Shown: positions 6,722-14,547 of the stretch, one piece after another
Layout of the letters: the number at the start of each line of letters is the position of its first letter
Position numbering within the stretch: position 1 is the first letter of the stretch
Program-made: the position numbers and the translations under genes
Virus record (IMG/VR): IMGVR_UViG_2778261572_000013
Span: 1 to 26,649 of that record
Origin: a virus
Taxonomy: Duplodnaviria > Heunggongvirae > Uroviricota > Caudoviricetes
Length of the DNA stretch: 26,649 nucleotides
Reading direction: 5' to 3' (one strand)
Notes under the pieces: generated by a model
Told to the model about the DNA's origin: nothing
What the model saw: the letters and a program-made list of their open reading frames with translations, nothing else
The model's database searches: none

Positions 6722-7575
6722 GTACCATCCTGAAATGGGCGGGTAATAAAACTGCCATTATGTCCGAACTGAAAAAACATCTTCCTGCTGGCCCGCGACT
6801 GGTTGAACCTTTCGCGGGTTCCTTTGCTGTGATGATGGAGACGGATTACCCCAGCTATCTTGTTGCGGATATTAATCCTGATTTAATCAACCTCTATAAA
6901 AAGGTTGCTGCTGATTGCGAGGCGTTTATATCTCGTGCCAGAGCTTTATTTGAGGAAGCAAACAGGGAGTTGGCTTATTACAACATAAGGCAGGAGTTTA
7001 ATTACTCCACTGAAATTACTGATTTCATGAAAGCGGTATATTTCCTGTATCTCAATCGTCATGGTTACCGTGGGTTATGTCGTTATAACAAGAGCGGGCA
7101 TTTCAACATTCCATACGGTAATTATAAAAATCCGTATTTCCCTGAAAAAGAAATTCGCGCATTTGCAGAGAAAGCCCAGCGAGCAACGTTTATCTGCGCC
7201 AGCTTTGATGAAACGCTGGCGATGCTGCAGGTGGGGGATGTGGTGTATTGCGATCCGCCTTATGACGGTACGTTTTCCGGCTATCACACTGACGGCTTCA
7301 CTGAAGATGACCAGTATCACCTGGCATCTGTTCTTGAATATCGATCATCAGAAGGTCATCCAGTCATTGTTTCTAACAGTGACACATCCCTGATCCGTTC
7401 GCTGTATCGAAATTTCACTCACCACTACATCAAGGCAAAACGCAGCATCGGCGTAGCAGCTGGTGAGAGTAAATCTGCAACAGAAATCATCGCTGTTTCT
7501 GGGGCGCGCTGCTGGGTGGGATTTGATCCTTCGCGTGGCGTGGATAGTTCTGCCGTGTACGGAGTGCGTGCATGA
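6718..7575 (+). CDS. dam: DNA adenine methyltransferase (Dam/D12-class N6-MTase), orphan
   Basis: 285 aa from ATG 6718 (AGGAGG RBS). N-terminal KWAGNK AdoMet motif and catalytic DPPY motif. No partner restriction enzyme nearby. Confidence 0.85.
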
Positions 7576-9986
7576 GCCATGCTGATATGAACAACTGCAG
7601 CGGCTTTAACGAGGCCGCCGCAGCATTCTCATGGAACAGCCCGAAAAAGGCTATTAACCCTTATCTGGACCCGGCGGAAGTTGCGCCGGTTTCTGCGCTT
7701 TCAAACCTGATCACTCTGTACGCTGCCGATAACGAGCAGGAACAACTGCGCCGCGAGGCACTGAGTGATCAGGTTTGGGAGCGTTATTTCTTTAATGAAT
7801 CCCGTGATCCTGTCCAGCGCGAAATGGAGCAGGATAAGCTCATTAGCCGGGCAAAGTTGGCGCATGAGCAGCAGCGTTTTAACCCGGACATGGTCATTCT
7901 GGCAGACGTTAACGCCCAGCCTTCCCATATCAGCAGGCCGCTGATGCAACGTATTGAATACTTCAGCAGCCTTGGCAGGCCAAAGGCTTATTCCCGCTAT
8001 TTGCGTGAGACGATTAAGCCATGTCTGGAACGGCTGGAGCATGTACGCGACAGTCAGCTATCCACTTCTTTTCGCTTTATGGCAAGCCATGAAGGGCTGG
8101 ACGGCCTGCTGATTCTGCCTGAAATGAGTCAGGATCAGGTGAAACGCCTGTCCACCCTTGTTGCTGCGCATATGAGCATGTGCCTTGATGCAGCTTGTGG
8201 CGATTTGTATGCCACCGATGACGTTAAGCCAGAAGAAATCCGCAAGACATGGGAAAAGGTGGCAGCAGAAACCCTGCGACTGGATGTCATACCGCCTGCG
8301 TTTGAGCAACTCCGCCGGAAAAGAAACCGCCGTAAACCCGTGCCCTATGAACTCATTCCGGGTTCGCTGGCGCGTATGTTGTGCGCCGATTGGTGGTACC
8401 GGAAATTATGGAAGATGCGTTGCGAATGGCGGGAAGAGCAGTTGCGTGCTGTTTGCCTGGTCAGCAAAAAAGCATCTCCCTATGTCAGCTATGAAGCCGT
8501 GATGCATAAACGTGAGCAGCGCCGTAAGTCGCTGGAGTTTTTCCGTTCTCATGAACTGGTGAACGAAGACGGCGACACGCTGGACATGGAGGATGTGGTA
8601 AACGCCAGCAGCAGCAACCCTGCGCATCGCCGCAATGAGATGATGGCCTGTGTTAAAGGTCTGGAGCTTATCGCGGAAATGCGCGGTGACTGCGCCGTTT
8701 TCTACACCATCACCTGTCCGTCACGTTTCCATTCCACGCTAAATAACGGCAGGCTCAACCCGACCTGGACAAATACGACGGTAAGACAAAGCAGTGATTA
8801 TCTGGTCGGCATGTTTGCTGCATTTCGTAAGGCGATGCACAAAGCCGGATTGCGCTGGTATGGCGTGCGGGTGGCTGAGCCGCATCATGACGGTACAGTT
8901 CACTGGCACCTGTTGTGTTTTATGCGCAAAAAAGATCGCCGCACCATTACTGCTTTGTTGCGTAAGTTTGCCATTCGTGAAGACCGCGAGGAGCTGGGTA
9001 ATAACACGGGACCACGCTTTAAGTCTGAGCTGATAAACCCGCGCAAAGGTACGCCAACAAGCTACATCGCGAAATACATCAGTAAGAACATTGACGGGCG
9101 TGGTCTGGCTGGCGAGATCAGCAAGGAAACGGGTAAATCCCTGCGTGATAACGCTGAATACGTTAATGCCTGGGCGTCTCTGCATCGTGTTCAGCAATTC
9201 CGCTTCTTTGGAATTCCGGGGCGTCAGGCTTACCGTGAACTGCGATTGCTGGCTGGTCAGGCGGCAAGGCAACAGGGGGACAAAAAAGCAGGTGCGCCGG
9301 TACTGGATAACCCGCGCCTTGATGCAATCCTGGCTGCTGCTGATGCTGGTTGTTTTGCCACCTACATCATGAAGCAGGGCGGCGTACTGGTTCCCCGCAA
9401 ATATCACCTCATCAGAACTGCTTATGAAATCAACGAAGAACCGACCGCATATGGCGATCACGGTATTCGTATTTATGGCATCTGGTCACCCATTGCAGAG
9501 GGCAAGATCTGCACTCATGCGGTGAAGTGGAAAATGGTTCGTAAGGCCGTTGACGTTCAGGAGGCGGCAGCCGACCAGGGCGCTTGCGCCCCTTGGACTC
9601 GTGGCAATAACTGTCCCCTTGCTGAAAATTTGTACCAACAAGGGAAAGACAAATCAGCTGATGGAGATACCAGAACGGATATCACCCGCATGGATGACAA
9701 GGAGTTGCACGATTACCTGCACAGTATGAGCAAAAAAGAGCGCCGGGAACTGGCTGCAAGGTTACGCCTGGTGAAACCGAAACGGCGTAAAGACTACAAA
9801 CAGCGAATTACAGACCATCAGCGACAGCAGCTCGTCTATGAACTGGAGTCCAGAGGATTTAATGGCAGCGAGAAAGAGGTCGATTTACTCCTTCGCGGCG
9901 GCAGTATTCCGTCAGGAGCAGGTCTGCGTATCTTCTATCGGAACCAGCGTTTGCAGGAAGATGATAAGTGGCGAAACCTGTATTAA
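7572..9986 (+). CDS. A: Replication initiation endonuclease (P2 gpA-like rolling-circle initiator)
   Basis: 804-aa ORF at the P2 gene A position, start overlapping the dam stop. Contains an HxH-type motif (GTVHWHLL) and a Tyr-containing region ([10 protein letters not shown]) consistent with Rep-type nickases. Confidence 0.85.
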
Positions 9987-10078
9987 TTACGCGGGTTAAC
10001 AATTCGTGCTCTTAATAATACCAGGCATATCAGGCTGATGAACGTAAAAAAACGTTTTACATCAGTAAGATTATTATA

Positions 10079-10098
10079 TACTGTAAATATAAACAGTG
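10079..10098. promoter_or_regulatory. LexA (SOS) box
   Basis: taCTGTaaatataaACAGtg matches the CTGT-N8-ACAG consensus, with promoter-like hexamers just upstream, about 45 bp before the 10140 ORF. Confidence 0.7.
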
Positions 10099-10139
10099 GT
10101 TATATATACAGTATTGCTTGTGGTGTCATAGGAGGAAAG

Positions 10140-10328
10140 ATGCAGGACTATTTTTTGGAGTCTTTGAAGCTCCAGCGCATTGATTTTTTTCTTAAGCTTG
10201 TAGCGGCTAGTGAGTGTAGTGATGAAGAGAAGGGGCTGGCTTTGCAGTGGGTTTCTGAACTGACAGATGAACTCATGGCAAAAATCAGAAGCCACGAATA
10301 CAACCGCTCAATGGATGTCATCAGCTGA
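10140..10328 (+). CDS. Small SOS-controlled protein, possible Tum-like antirepressor N-terminal module
   Basis: 62-aa ORF with strong RBS (AGGAGG) directly downstream of the LexA box; position matches the LexA-controlled tum locus of phage 186 after gene A. Confidence 0.45.
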   Translation: MQDYFLESLKLQRIDFFLKLVAASECSDEEKGLALQWVSELTDELMAKIRSHEYNRSMDVIS

Positions 10329-10338
10329 GGGGACTTTT

Positions 10339-10572
10339 ATGCGCATTGAAATAATGATCGATAAAGAGCAGAAGATTAGCCAGTCTACCCTGGACGCCCT
10401 TGAATCCGAGCTTTACCGCAATCTGCGCCCCCTGTATCCCAAAACGGTAATTCGTATCCGTAAAGGTAGCTCTAACGGTGTGGAACTGACCGGACTGCAA
10501 CTGGACGAAGAAAGGAAGCAAGTGATGAAAATTATGCAGAAGGTGTGGGAAGACGACAGCTGGCTGCATTAA
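10339..10572 (+). CDS. DinI-family protein
   Basis: 77 aa starting MRIEIMIDKEQ, ending WEDDSWLH; resembles DinI (MRIEVTIAK ... WESADDWF). RBS GAGGGGA. Confidence 0.75.
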   Translation: MRIEIMIDKEQKISQSTLDALESELYRNLRPLYPKTVIRIRKGSSNGVELTGLQLDEERKQVMKIMQKVWEDDSWLH

Positions 10573-10842
10573 GAAACGTTGCTGGCGTCTGAACTTGCTT
10601 CTGGCGTCAGCAAGGTTGAACAACGAGCTGTGCGAGGCGTTAGTGTCAATTTGTTACCTTAACCACGATATATGCTAGGAAATTAACAGTTCTTAAGAAA
10701 CCGCTTGCATGATCGAGCGCATTGAACTTAAGTTTAAGTAACGAAATCAACAGATGATATTGTTGTCTAAATTTTAAAGATAATCTGTTGAGGTTGTAGG
10801 CGTCGGAGTGTAGACTTCCGCGCCATGTAAAAAGGGGGAGTT

Positions 10843-11058
10843 ATGTCAAGCATCGCCGCATTTAGCCTGGGTAACCCAGTTGAACGTCTGGCAAGGGTTC
10901 TTAAAGAGAACCAGGACAAACTCAATCTTAGTAAAGATGGTTTTGTGTCCGTAGACTTGTCTAACAAAAGAGCAATGGATGCCATCAAGGCACAGATGGA
11001 TAAGCTTGAAGGCATCAAAACGAGCACTGTAAAAGAGAAAACTAATAGAACCAGATAA
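10843..11058 (+). CDS. Hypothetical small soluble protein (cassette 1, gene 1)
   Basis: 71 aa with strong RBS (AAGGGGGAG). AT-rich. Stop overlaps the next start (TAATG). Confidence 0.55.
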   Translation: MSSIAAFSLGNPVERLARVLKENQDKLNLSKDGFVSVDLSNKRAMDAIKAQMDKLEGIKTSTVKEKTNRTR

Positions 11059-11900
11059 TGGCAACATTACTTTTAGCAGTGATTTTGGTTAGTGGTTTTA
11101 TTTATGTAAACCTATCACTTTCAACAAGATACCGATATAAGCGTTCCAACGGCTGGGACGCTTATTTTTTTGTGGCTGCCTGGGGTATCGTTTTTTTTCT
11201 CCTTGGCGGTTTTTTCACCTTTATTTTGAACGTCAGCGGAGGGTTTCGTTGGCTGGCTAATGCCTTGAATCTAACACCTGACAGTTTTAATGGCATGTTG
11301 TCTTCATCGAAAGACAAACTTCAAAGAATAAATGAAATCAAACAGATAGCATGGGTTATGATTTCAATTGTCCTCGCTGCGATTTCAGGTTTTGGAAATA
11401 AGTTACGCACATCACGTGGAGATCGTCGCTGGGATGCCTTAGCTAAAGCTGTGGGTAATAACGCTTTCGAATCATTACTCATGGAAGCGTCCGCAAGACA
11501 GTTTCCGATCATAGCAACTCTGTCGTCTCGCAAAATCTATGTTGGTCTTGTTACTTGTCCGGCGTTAGAAAACGGGCTTTCAGAGCACCTTGAACTTCTC
11601 CCGATGTTAAGCGGATATCGGGATAAAGATGATCTAACGATTAGTATCACGACTAACTATCACCAACATTATCTTGATAGTGGTGTGATAAGTGGAATGT
11701 CTCGGCTTAATATCGAAGATTTCCGTGTGCTCATACCAAAAGATGAGGTTGAAACAATTTCGTTTTTTGATACTGAGACATATAACAAATTTAAAGAAAA
11801 TGAAGCCAGGGATAGAAAGAGCTGTCGAAAGATTGGTAGTAAAAGTGCATCTTCGCACAGCAAGCGTGCAGCAGATACTGAGTCAAATGATCGTGCATGA
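11058..11900 (+). CDS. Hypothetical membrane protein (cassette 1, gene 2)
   Basis: 280 aa; three hydrophobic segments in the first about 115 residues, then a hydrophilic domain of about 165 aa. Translationally coupled to the 71-aa gene. Confidence 0.55.
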   Translation: MATLLLAVILVSGFIYVNLSLSTRYRYKRSNGWDAYFFVAAWGIVFFLLGGFFTFILNVSGGFRWLANALNLTPDSFNGMLSSSKDKLQRINEIKQIAWVMISIVLAAISGFGNKLRTSRGDRRWDALAKAVGNNAFESLLMEASARQFPIIATLSSRKIYVGLVTCPALENGLSEHLELLPMLSGYRDKDDLTISITTNYHQHYLDSGVISGMSRLNIEDFRVLIPKDEVETISFFDTETYNKFKENEARDRKSCRKIGSKSASSHSKRAADTESNDRA

Positions 11901-11948
11901 CTATGCTGCATGAGATCGCATGATCGTTTGAGGATCGTTTTTGCTAAG

Positions 11949-11972
11949 GCCCGCCAGAACTGGCGGGCTTTT
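11949..11972 (+). terminator. Rho-independent terminator after cassette 1
   Basis: GCCCGCCAG-aa-CTGGCGGGC perfect 9-bp stem followed by TTTT. Confidence 0.7.
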
Positions 11973-12231
11973 GCATAGATCATGCACCTGCATGAAAACT
12001 ACTACATAAAGCGGGCAGGCGTGGCGGGGATACGAGCGCGCGCTGTCGGTATTTTCAAAATTTAAGTAAGATAGTAAATGCAAAATGTGTATCACTCTAT
12101 CGGGTACAGAAAAACCATTCAGAAACTATAATTGAACAGTAACAAACGTGATGATGTTCACTTTTTTAAATTTTTTATATAAACTGATGGGTACTATGAC
12201 AGTAATATGCCAGCTTGCGTGAGAATGAATT

Positions 12232-12696
12232 GTGGAAAAAGAGCTAAATCAAAATCAGATCAGTGAAGTGCAGATTAATGTCTGCCACAAAATCTATGAA
12301 TTTTTTAAGTCTTTAGATGGAGCATCCGATTTCAAAATCGAAACTGAAACCAGTGGCGATGATGGCGATCTAAGTTTTTCTTTTGAGCAATCAAAGACTA
12401 TTTTTAAAGTGGAAGTGCTTTCTACAGAATACTTTAAATTAATTAGAATTATAAATGCATTTGACTTTACCGCAACAAAGTCTATTGAGGAAATGAATTT
12501 ATTAGGCAGGGCAAATCAATTTAATGCATATGCAGTGGGCATTAAGGCTCTGGTTCATACTAAAAAAGTAGGTTATGTTGATTTCTGCGTAGATATATTA
12601 TCTTCTAAAGGTGACGTTAATTCTAGCGATCTTAATTTATCCTTGGTCTTACTAAGAAGTGCGCCAATGAATTTTCTGGCAGTAACTAAGGACTAG
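12232..12696 (+). CDS. Hypothetical acidic soluble protein (cassette 2, gene 1)
   Basis: 154-aa ORF from a GTG start, AT-rich, no recognised motif; followed 10 bp later by the next gene. Confidence 0.45.
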   Translation: MEKELNQNQISEVQINVCHKIYEFFKSLDGASDFKIETETSGDDGDLSFSFEQSKTIFKVEVLSTEYFKLIRIINAFDFTATKSIEEMNLLGRANQFNAYAVGIKALVHTKKVGYVDFCVDILSSKGDVNSSDLNLSLVLLRSAPMNFLAVTKD

Positions 12697-12706
12697 TGAG
12701 GACAAT

Positions 12707-13480
12707 ATGCCAACAAAGCCTAGTTTAGATGAAAATTCAACGTTAAACTTGAAGGCGCAATCTTATTTAAAAGCTGTCTCGGTAGATGCCTCAAATGATT
12801 CTACCCACAATGGATGGAATGCTGATGTAATTATTTTTTTTGTTTTCATTGTTGTTGTAATGGCTCTGACACTATCAAAATGGCTTCAGAATAAAATAGA
12901 TGAATTTATTTCAAAAAAATATTTTAGATGGGTTTTTTCTGGGGTAATTCTTCCAGCGATATCGTTAGGCTTAGCAAGCTACACAACAGCATCAAATCAA
13001 AAATTTGTATACATTGCTACAATTATAGTAAGTCTTGTGATTGGTGAGCGAGCTTCTGCACTGACAGCTGAGAAATCCGAACAACAACTTGAGGCTGAGA
13101 CAGGAAAATTAACTAGCAAAATAAGTGTGCTAGAAGCTGCACATACTAAGGCTTTGGAAAAGAAAGATGCTGAACTTGCAGCTAAAGGTAATGAAATTAG
13201 AGCTGTATCTGATGAGCTTACTAAAAGAGTTGATGAGTTACGTCAGAATTATTTGCGAAGATTGTACGAAATAGCTACAGATCATCAAGAGGCTGATTGT
13301 GTTGTCATTAAATTGAGAGTAAAAGAGGTGGCTCAAGATATTATGGCAACAAGTGGGCTTCTTTTAACTATGGATAGTATTGATTATCAGGTGAGAAATA
13401 ACCAAGTTCCGTTGCCACAGGAAAGTTCAATTGTTTATGAATATGCTATGAAGAATGCTAAAGCTCGAAATCAGCAATGA
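12707..13480 (+). CDS. Hypothetical membrane protein with coiled-coil domain (cassette 2, gene 2)
   Basis: 257 aa with RBS GTGAGGA; three hydrophobic segments (about residues 41-113), then a heptad-like charged region (EKSEQQLEAETGKLTSKISVLEAAHTKALEKKDAELAAKGNEIRAVSDELTKRVDELRQ). Confidence 0.55.
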   Translation: MPTKPSLDENSTLNLKAQSYLKAVSVDASNDSTHNGWNADVIIFFVFIVVVMALTLSKWLQNKIDEFISKKYFRWVFSGVILPAISLGLASYTTASNQKFVYIATIIVSLVIGERASALTAEKSEQQLEAETGKLTSKISVLEAAHTKALEKKDAELAAKGNEIRAVSDELTKRVDELRQNYLRRLYEIATDHQEADCVVIKLRVKEVAQDIMATSGLLLTMDSIDYQVRNNQVPLPQESSIVYEYAMKNAKARNQQ

Positions 13481-13518: not shown

Positions 13519-14547
13519 TTACAGTTTATATTCAGAGAAATTTATAATGCGCTCACCCAACCAATAATTAATCTCTGCAATCCGCATTTGCAGGGCTACT
13601 AGCTCATTTCGCACAAAAACATTTGCCGCCTTCTCTACATCCCCAAACCCTCCAACATTATTAGGCATTATCCCCATCATTTGCGGCGGTACGCGGTGCG
13701 CCGCCATCATGTCGTCCCGGCTCACGTTCTTGATATTCAGAAACTCATCCTTCGCCGCGACTTCTGACAGAGGAATGATCTGAAGCCCATCCTTTTTGCC
13801 GTTAGGCGAGTACATAAACAGGTTGCGGAAGTTACCCGGTCCTTTGGCGCTTTTCATTGCGTTGCGGAGGTTGTTCACATCCTCCTGGTTTTGCGCGGCA
13901 TCGGTCATGTACATGATGAAGCCTGCATGACTGCCGTTAATGTAATACTTCCGGCGGAACAGCGTGGCGGACTCGTTGAGCAGAGCGGATGGAATAGCAG
14001 AAAGATAGCCAGGCAGGCCGTAGATCTCCTGATTAATATCCGGTTCCATCAGATGAAAGATGCTGCCTTTCGTGAACTGATACGGCTGGGTTGCCATACC
14101 GTATTGCACAAACCAGTAGGTATCCAGGTCTAATCCGCGTCGAGTGTATTTTGCCAGGGCAGGTTCAAGGGCGATAACTTCACCGAAGCGGTTCGTGCGT
14201 TTCTCCAGGTAGGCATTACCAAATACCAGATAGTCCTGCACAAAACGTGAAAAAGCCTGCTGGCTGAGCAACGGGTGAGGGATATAGGTGCTGGTCAGAA
14301 TGTTGCACTTTACTGCAATCGGTGAGCTGTGGTGTACGGCGGCGCGGAAGGTTCGCGCCAGGCCGTCGAAACTCACTGGTGGCTCATACCAACGGTCCAT
14401 CTGTACGCATTCCACATAGTCCAGCAGTTCGCGGCGGTCCAGAACAGGAACGGGATCACCGAAGCTGAATGCTTCGGCTGAAGTCTGGTTTTTATGCTGG
14501 ATCTGTTTCGTCGCCGCAGCGCGGTTCTTCTTACTCTTTCCCATCAA
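13519..14547 (-). CDS. Q: Portal vertex protein (P2 gpQ-like)
   Basis: 342 aa (P2 Q is about 344 aa), leftward, adjacent to the terminase remnant, in the P2 cos-Q-P arrangement. Confidence 0.8.
   Translation of the reverse strand: MMGKSKKNRAAATKQIQHKNQTSAEAFSFGDPVPVLDRRELLDYVECVQMDRWYEPPVSFDGLARTFRAAVHHSSPIAVKCNILTSTYIPHPLLSQQAFSRFVQDYLVFGNAYLEKRTNRFGEVIALEPALAKYTRRGLDLDTYWFVQYGMATQPYQFTKGSIFHLMEPDINQEIYGLPGYLSAIPSALLNESATLFRRKYYINGSHAGFIMYMTDAAQNQEDVNNLRNAMKSAKGPGNFRNLFMYSPNGKKDGLQIIPLSEVAAKDEFLNIKNVSRDDMMAAHRVPPQMMGIMPNNVGGFGDVEKAANVFVRNELVALQMRIAEINYWLGERIINFSEYKL

Follow-up and report, generated by a model that had tools for sequence, protein, structure and literature searches.

A mobile two-gene cassette encoding a small protein and a membrane protein with a predicted Sm-like domain in the gpA-gpQ hotspot of a P2-like prophage

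The stretch of DNA analysed here (the window: 26,649 nucleotides (nt), IMG/VR record IMGVR_UViG_2778261572_000013) is a P2-like prophage, the gene layout of which agrees with the RefSeq annotation of a 99.8%-identical Escherichia coli prophage. Between gpA and the portal gene lies a cassette of two genes (Table 1) that is self-contained, mobile and real. A preliminary description of the sequence had placed the cassette there, and the annotation concurs. The same description called open reading frames (ORFs) of 71 and 280 amino acids (aa) at these positions, and both calls are borne out by comparison with the copy in Klebsiella phage ST15-OXA48phi14.1, which shares 79.6% DNA identity with that of the window. 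Ratios of non-synonymous to synonymous substitution (dN/dS) are 0.22 (small gene) and 0.05 (large gene), which indicates purifying selection, and both are therefore genes and not chance ORFs. Between the same two copies (window 10843-11900; Klebsiella locus L002, 5125-6185), dS itself is 0.46 in the small gene and 2.08 in the large, a contrast that suggests either a recombination breakpoint within the cassette or unequal constraint on the two genes. The pair was rightly described as AT-rich, having a guanine-plus-cytosine (GC) content of 41.1% compared with 49.9% in the 3 kb to its left, and the overlapping stop and start codons (TAATG) can be read directly at the gene junction. Strong ribosome-binding sites had been credited to both genes; that of the small gene is present, whereas the large gene lacks a Shine-Dalgarno sequence and must consequently rely on coupling through the TAATG overlap.

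Table 1. Features of the cassette and its surroundings in the window
Feature	Position	Strand	Details
gpA	7572-9986		Left of the cassette
62-aa phrog_698 protein gene	10140-10328		From RefSeq annotation of the identical prophage and PHROG/Pfam match ranges
77-aa DinI-like gene (dinI)	10339-10572		From RefSeq annotation of the identical prophage and PHROG/Pfam match ranges
Cassette-specific leader	10644-10842	+	Begins where homology to cassette-free P2-like phages stops
Conserved leader block	10722-10753	+	AACTTAAGTTTAAGTAACG...TCAACAG; includes palindrome 10722-10737
Operator-like dyad	10747-10761 / 10777-10791	.	TCAACAGATGATATT / AAGATAATCTGTTGA; right arm overlaps the -35 hexamer
Predicted sigma-70 promoter	10788-10823	+	-35 TTGAGG 10788-10793, 17-nt spacer, -10 TAGACT 10811-10816
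GC-rich discriminator	10817-10823	+	TCCGCGC, directly after the predicted -10
Shine-Dalgarno of small gene	10834-10840	+	GGGGGAG, strong; read directly from the sequence
Small partner gene	10843-11058	+	71 aa, soluble, net charge +5
Stop/start overlap	11056-11060	+	TAATG; translational coupling; second gene without Shine-Dalgarno
Large gene	11058-11900	+	280-aa inner-membrane protein; three transmembrane helices and a predicted cytoplasmic Sm-like domain
Membrane module	11061-11405	+	Transmembrane helices at aa ~2-20, ~33-60 and ~91-116; hydropathy, charge, AlphaFold2 helices
Cytoplasmic Sm/LSm/Hfq-like beta-barrel	11463-11765	+	aa ~136-236; predicted structure
C-terminal tail	11805-11897	+	aa ~250-280; disordered, variable, basic, Ser/Arg/Lys-rich
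P2-backbone spacer, 156 bp	11890-12045	+	Conserved; marks the cassette end and separates it from the next cargo slot
Portal gene	13519-14547	-	Terminase gene also on the minus strand

The leader contains several candidate regulatory signals. Because the window and Pectobacterium copies of the cassette have diverged almost to saturation at synonymous sites, the non-coding blocks still conserved between them are meaningful. The leader block listed in Table 1 is unchanged among the window, Klebsiella and Pectobacterium copies. A repeat search identified a dyad with 15-nt arms that are 87% complementary, and its CAACAG...CTGTTG arms are kept in the Klebsiella copy; from its sequence and position the dyad looks like an operator. 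The predicted sigma-70 promoter matches the consensus at 8 of 12 positions, with conservation providing its support. Given so few matches, it was missed by a generic sigma-70 scan, in which no plus-strand promoter upstream of the cassette reached 9 of 12. The Klebsiella, Pectobacterium and Cronobacter phiES15 copies repeat the -10 hexamer and discriminator just 5' of the small gene; phiES15 does so even though its large protein is only ~26% identical, and a close variant of the element, TAGAATGCCGGCGC, is found in Aeromonas. The degenerate pattern TASAMTBCYGCGC has a single match in the window, where 0.01 would be expected, and a single match in each of the loci L001, L002, L014, L015 and L016, always just 5' of the small gene. 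As these sequences were the source of the pattern, finding it in them is circular, and what carries information is that no locus contains it a second time. The CCGCGC that follows the predicted -10 is kept in very divergent copies (the window, L002, L014, L015 and L018), and such GC-rich discriminators characterise promoters subject to stringent or growth-rate control.

The junctions of the cassette were defined by aligning the window with the cassette-free phage 500465-1. Backbone homology extends from the dinI stop codon to ~10643 and restarts at ~11893, still just inside the large gene, whose stop codon lies a few bases further on. The conserved spacer that marks this right-hand end is found directly 3' of dinI in P2-like phages without the cassette and is present in 1,274 of 5,426 complete E. 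coli genomes, of which 52 (~1%) carry the cassette. Empty sites in E. coli genomes consist of the two backbone pieces joined (231 bp), compared with 1,473 bp when the site is filled. The spacer has a fold energy of -60.9 kcal/mol (z -2.96), and its outer stem, a 14-nt inverted repeat (11893-11906 / 11973-11987), surrounds a GC-rich terminator-like hairpin (~11946-11971) with a U-tract from 11969. This hairpin had been assigned to the cassette as its own terminator (11949-11972). The structure is real, but it belongs to the conserved P2 backbone and is present in cassette-free phages. A scan of positions 10300-12300 against Rfam returned nothing meaningful and left the spacer unmatched. The spacer may act as a homology anchor for cassette exchange.

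On the 3' side of the spacer, other phages possess SieB or a TIR protein in place of the second cargo pair of the window (12232-13480), which fills the stretch between the spacer and the portal gene and encodes a 154-aa protein followed by a 257-aa protein with transmembrane segments and a coiled coil. This second pair has no significant family match, its weak PADLOC matches being to AbiEii and 2TM-effector models (E ~3-5e-3), and it accompanies the cassette in none of the complete E. coli genomes. The presence of the spacer between the two cargoes, together with the differing downstream cargo, shows that the gpA-gpQ hotspot is composed of two slots split by the spacer and that the cassette is an independent module of ~1.25 kb residing in the first. 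In the region to the left of the cassette, mechanical ORF calls across 10038-10572 are overlong relative to the true 62-aa and 77-aa genes.

The product of the large gene is composed of a membrane module and a cytoplasmic domain. Hydropathy analysis places hydrophobic segments at aa 1-24, 32-63 and 91-116, and the positively charged loops put the N-terminus on the outer side and make the C-terminal ~165 aa cytoplasmic; hydropathy and loop charge thus agree with the topology of three N-terminal transmembrane segments proposed in the preliminary description. A cytoplasmic loop, RYRYKRSNGWD, connects the first two helices and a periplasmic loop the second and third, with G13, R29, G32, Y36 and G43 conserved across the module. 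The cytoplasmic domain, previously considered to lack any recognisable motif, is a predicted Sm-like barrel in the AlphaFold2 model of the protein (predicted local distance difference test, pLDDT, 78.3), where an N-terminal helix precedes five strongly bent beta-strands, and the membrane half is distantly DUF6338-like. The barrel harbours the signature K159-x-Y161-V-G163 ... P182-x-x-S185-G-Y-R188-D-K-D ... Y201. The tail that follows is modelled with a pLDDT of 48-50, carries a net charge of +4 and is unalignable among homologues. Sequence searches recovered no LSM or Hfq match, whether as Sm1/Sm2 motifs or profile, in Pfam or NCBIfam, and the family profile produced 0 matches at E <= 10 against PDB sequences. 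Foldseek comparison with the viral structures of BFVD yielded weak matches (E ~1e-3) to uncharacterised or ‘Sm-like’ phage proteins.

The predicted barrel differs from those of Sm/LSm/Hfq and WYL proteins in lacking sequence similarity to them, in being tethered to the membrane and in possessing an insertion between beta4 and beta5. A comparable plan, with the N-terminus outside, three transmembrane helices and a cytoplasmic beta-domain, is shared with the MscS channels, the cytoplasmic beta-domain of which is classed with Sm-like folds in SCOP. Membership of the MscS family was nevertheless rejected, as there is no MS_channel match in Pfam and alignment of the family profile with an MscK-like protein by hhalign gave a probability of 0.35%.

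The small protein is modelled with modest confidence (pLDDT 67.5) as a helix, a beta-hairpin and a long helix; this model has no fold match and no recognisable DNA-binding fold. A gene for a protein of 55-82 aa is located directly 5' of the large gene in all 13 contexts with readable upstream DNA, overlapping it or separated from it by at most 27 nt in every case. These small proteins are recognisably related: a helix at the N-terminus comes first, then a hairpin of the form [DN]G-x-phi ... phi-[ND]-L-x-[DN], and finally a long helix. Database labels for the two proteins are mutually contradictory and without hidden Markov model (HMM) support, and were set aside: for the small protein, ‘multidrug ABC transporter ATPase’ is in wide use and ‘YobD’ occurs as well, whilst the large protein of Photorhabdus is entered as ‘HrcA’ and one E. 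coli copy as ‘DUF2207 domain-containing’.

Word-indexed searches initially indicated a small family confined to Gammaproteobacteria (57-83 clusters), a picture overturned by an exhaustive HMM search that recovered 2,891 cluster representatives of the large protein (50% identity, E <= 1e-3), 2,010 of them at E <= 1e-10. Nearly all are 240-300 aa in length and match end to end. Conservation was assessed in 134 sampled representatives, which were also used to count DUF6338 matches. Y161, P182, S185, G186 and Y201 are invariant among the 134, whilst G13, G32, Y36, G43, K159, G163, Y187, R188 and F237 are conserved in at least 90%. The cytoplasmic barrel is the most conserved part of the protein across more than 2,000 clusters, and the family signature extends beyond it to a glycine/tyrosine pattern in the first transmembrane helix, the first loop and the second helix.

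DUF6338 (PF19865) is the only Pfam family to recur among the 134 representatives, 15 of which match it weakly at E <= 0.1 (best E 2.8e-7). A single sequence, P0236, exceeds the gathering threshold of 26.5 bits, with a score of 30.8. In P0230 and P0236 the match covers profile positions 7-112 of 205, the membrane half only, and the large protein of the window has no match to DUF6338 at E <= 1. The likeness is thus one of N-terminal three-helix modules, the Sm-like C-terminal domain of the cassette protein being unmatched, and these sequence comparisons identify the window protein as a superfamily-level relative of DUF6338 and not a member. As the function of DUF6338 is itself unknown, this link explains nothing about mechanism. 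One DUF6338 gene, in Pseudomonas stutzeri, is found in an operon with small proteins (PMC10433244).

Scans of both window proteins and their neighbours against Pfam, NCBIfam and PADLOC (PADLOC-DB v2.0.0, 2023) returned only noise, and the PHROG matches are to families of unknown function, phrog_3630 for the large protein (E 6.6e-99) and phrog_9843 for the small. The absence of a match to any named system, as first described, therefore holds for these databases.

Genomic contexts were sampled at ~14 loci of a family that numbers thousands, and ~12 of the 14 are mobile elements. The P2-type gpA-gpQ slot holds the pair in the window and in further E. coli, Klebsiella and Salmonella (SEN5) elements. 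Elsewhere its position varies with the phage. In lambdoid phages it lies between hok and DUF968-rusA-Q in the nin region (L003, E. coli) or between K and I in the tail cluster (L005, Enterobacter), and in an Aeromonas siphovirus (L018) between the major tail and tape-measure genes. In L018 (5809-7846), the slot usual for the G/GT tail-assembly chaperones contains the pair alone, with no other ORF of at least 50 aa. The pair is also located at the edge of a P2-like prophage in Shewanella (L008), beside the repressor and integrase region of Pseudoalteromonas phage C5a (L012), between the integrase gene and attP of Cronobacter phiES15, and at the prophage end or in the regulatory region of Pseudomonas vB_Pae_U5. 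A distant pair, encoding proteins of 60 and 288 aa, lies between parA/parB/repA and korA/resolvase genes on a plasmid-like contig (L019/L020, 5810-6867), where a further gene for a 127-aa protein of unknown function follows directly 3'.

Two contexts are without mobile-element genes. In the Pectobacterium chromosome (L015/L016, 6372-7819) a block of dinI and genes for 65-aa and 272-aa proteins remains whilst the rest of the prophage is gone, and this looks like a retained remnant of the P2-like hotspot. The block is flanked by genes for an MscK-like channel and an MFS transporter, and there are no other phage genes nearby. The second is a metagenome-assembled chromosome (L023).

In all 10 contexts measured, the GC content of the pair is below that of both flanks, the extreme being Aeromonas (38.6% against 61%). 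An intrinsic terminator is situated directly 3' of the pair in most contexts, although that of the window is shared backbone. The identical terminator ACCCGCTTCGGCGGGTTTT follows the pair in L003 (after 6819), L005 (after 6801) and L018 (after 7771), and its recurrence in three unrelated phage contexts indicates that in this lineage the terminator travels with the cassette. The term moron denotes genetic packaging and not function. The cassette is inserted between conserved backbone genes and missing from close relatives, and its base composition is distinct from that of the flanks. Its packaging, mobility and composition mark it as a moron, a self-sufficient accessory unit moving between temperate phages and plasmids. 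It resembles other temperate-phage morons, such as HK97 gp15 and lambda lom and bor, in its insertion between backbone genes with a predicted promoter and, in most contexts, a terminator, in its GC content below that of the flanks, and in its variable position, which includes the inside of tail operons.

The gpA-gpQ slot of P2-like phages was defined as an anti-phage hotspot by Rousset et al. (PMC9122126). Residence in this validated hotspot, the SieB or TIR proteins that come after the cassette in other phages, the combination of a membrane protein with a coupled small partner and the deeply conserved barrel, which belongs to a fold class that senses ligands in other proteins, together make a function in conflict between mobile elements the leading reading. 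More specifically, the pair is tentatively proposed to form a membrane switch, similar to a toxin-antitoxin (TA) system, that excludes superinfecting phages or aborts their infection. What was computed or predicted here comprises the structure of the genes and the purifying selection on them, the topology and fold, the constancy of the partner, the moron-like behaviour, residence in the hotspot and the lack of a match to known systems; expression in the lysogen, interaction of the two proteins, oligomerisation, ligand binding and any anti-phage effect are inferred. The unit, lying between P2-like backbone genes, would probably be expressed in the lysogen from its own promoter. The small basic protein would reside in the cytoplasm, probably in excess given its strong ribosome-binding site, and the coupled inner-membrane protein would hold its Sm-like barrel just under the membrane by means of DUF6338-like helices. 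By analogy with Sm, Hfq and WYL proteins, the barrel may serve as a sensor or gate that oligomerises and/or binds a nucleic-acid or nucleotide ligand and so controls the transmembrane bundle. The small partner might bind and restrain the barrel as an antitoxin-like inhibitor, until infection or loss of the partner freed the membrane activity of the effector bundle, such as an ion leak or a block to entry. A bolder and rather doubtful version makes the pair the founder of a widespread two-component system of membrane immunity that has so far gone unrecognised, in which a ring of tethered Sm-like barrels would sense nucleic acid or nucleotide on the cytoplasmic side of the membrane and gate the DUF6338-type bundle, with the partner as inhibitor or adaptor.

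The general theme, a hotspot moron combining a membrane protein with a partner, is familiar, whereas the proteins and their domain combination are not. Lambda RexAB and the validated AC1 system (‘2TM + 1TM + TIR’) are likewise prophage morons that pair a membrane protein with a partner, though neither has homology to the cassette. In RexAB the membrane protein is small and the soluble sensor large. AC1, from a P2-like phage, sits in the same P2 hotspot (PMC9122126). Identity with this TIR system of Rousset et al. was ruled out, as AC1 comprises a TIR enzyme and other transmembrane proteins and the cassette contains no enzyme domain.

Several observations weigh against an exclusion or abortive-infection role. 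The evidence for it is drawn exclusively from context and architecture, and the same evidence fits a TA or addiction module or a factor of host physiology. Cargo of the gpA-gpQ hotspot is not all defensive, partition systems and toxins being found there too (PMC9122126). The chromosomal member L023 has neither mobile-element nor defence genes in its neighbourhood. In PADLOC-DB, both window proteins and 10 distant relatives returned nothing below E 0.1. The pair is also not among the systems tested by Rousset et al. 2022, and the supplements of neither DefensePredictor nor the 2026 P2/P4 preprint contain it. Finally, the Sm-like domain was assigned from a predicted model (pLDDT 78) and is unaccompanied by Sm or Hfq sequence motifs.

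Among the alternatives is a plain TA or addiction module that stabilises the prophage or plasmid, in which the membrane protein is the toxin and the small protein both antitoxin and autorepressor. A small gene lies 5' of, and is coupled to, a larger gene, here one for a membrane protein, and an operator-like dyad overlaps the -35, as it does in autoregulated type II TA operons, with the antitoxin and operator roles putative. One copy has par, kor and rep genes as neighbours on a plasmid-like contig, and an orphan copy is kept in the Pectobacterium chromosome. However, neither protein is homologous to a known toxin or antitoxin family or matches TA models in Pfam, NCBIfam or PADLOC, the small protein lacks a recognisable DNA-binding fold, and siting within tail operons and a defence hotspot is seen more typically in morons from which the lysogen profits. 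A plain addiction module is considered unlikely, although abortive infection and TA activity are not mutually exclusive. A role in lysogenic conversion or host physiology is held to be similarly improbable. Here the membrane complex would be a channel, transporter regulator or envelope-stress device that alters fitness regardless of phage. The size of the family (2,891 representatives), the chromosomal copy near ribonucleotide reductase and LysR genes, the GC-rich discriminator, which from general knowledge of stringent promoters suggests growth-rate control, and the outline resemblance to MscS channels would all suit such a role, as would the reported location of DUF6338 genes near biosynthetic clusters and small-protein operons (PMC10433244). 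Yet the contexts are predominantly mobile elements (~12 of 14), the pair is sporadic in E. coli (~1% of genomes), and neither Pfam nor hhalign reveals sequence kinship to MscS or MscK.

Alternatively, the membrane protein could act at the inner membrane as a classical superinfection-exclusion protein, keeping the DNA of related phages from entering in the manner of T4 Imm, P22 SieA or HK97 gp15, with the small protein as an accessory. The pair does encode an inner-membrane protein within a prophage moron and adjoins SieB in E. coli prophages, and two copies lie within tail-gene clusters, where the HK97 gp15 moron reportedly also sits. Known exclusion proteins are small, have a narrow distribution and are usually without a cytoplasmic domain of large size and deep conservation, whereas in this family the barrel is the part most conserved. 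Pfam and PHROGs show no homology to SieA, SieB or Imm models, and a dedicated entry blocker is held to be distinctly unlikely. A structural, assembly or lysis function, for example as tail-assembly chaperones or as a class I holin with its regulator, is effectively excluded. The chaperone idea was prompted by the Aeromonas pair, which fills the usual G/GT slot where no other ORFs fit, but the composition of that pair, 38.6% GC between flanks of 61%, marks it as foreign DNA and, together with the position of the cassette, which changes with each phage type, disposes of a tail-chaperone replacement. Most P2-like phages, moreover, are without the pair. Although the topology, N-terminus outside, C-terminus inside and three transmembrane segments, matches that of class I holins, these are ~90-130 aa and lie beside the endolysin gene, whereas the cassette protein has 280 aa and a folded barrel, is never beside lysis genes in the contexts examined and has no lysis-gene neighbour in the window or the annotated P2-like relative. 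No structural or lysis family was matched in PHROG, Pfam or NCBIfam, and the pair does recur in accessory slots of unrelated prophages and on a plasmid-like contig, in keeping with the accessory status first suggested for it.

No characterisation of the pair was found in the literature, nor was any membrane-anchored Sm-like prophage protein found described. The pair appears in Table S5A of Rousset et al. 2022, so far as that source was accessible, as ‘hypothetical + hypothetical’ cargo, with the accession of the small protein occurring there at least 21 times. Approximately one fifth of P2-like prophages carry only genes of unknown function in the gpA-gpQ slot (2026 preprint, 10.64898/2026.02.27.708500). 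P2-like prophages are a proven reservoir of anti-phage systems, and the cassette is one unknown among their cargo that is now well delimited: a 1.25-kb unit with predicted signals of its own, whose conserved partner and invariant residues provide direct targets for mutagenesis. It has thousands of relatives, all of them without a known function, so that a phenotype here would annotate a large family. It would also give the DUF6338-type membrane module a role and add a membrane-anchored Sm-like barrel to the architectures of sensors and effectors. If the reading as a membrane immunity system is true, this would be the first function for DUF6338-type membrane modules; if the cassette proves to serve only addiction or physiology, it would caution against taking all hotspot cargo as defence.

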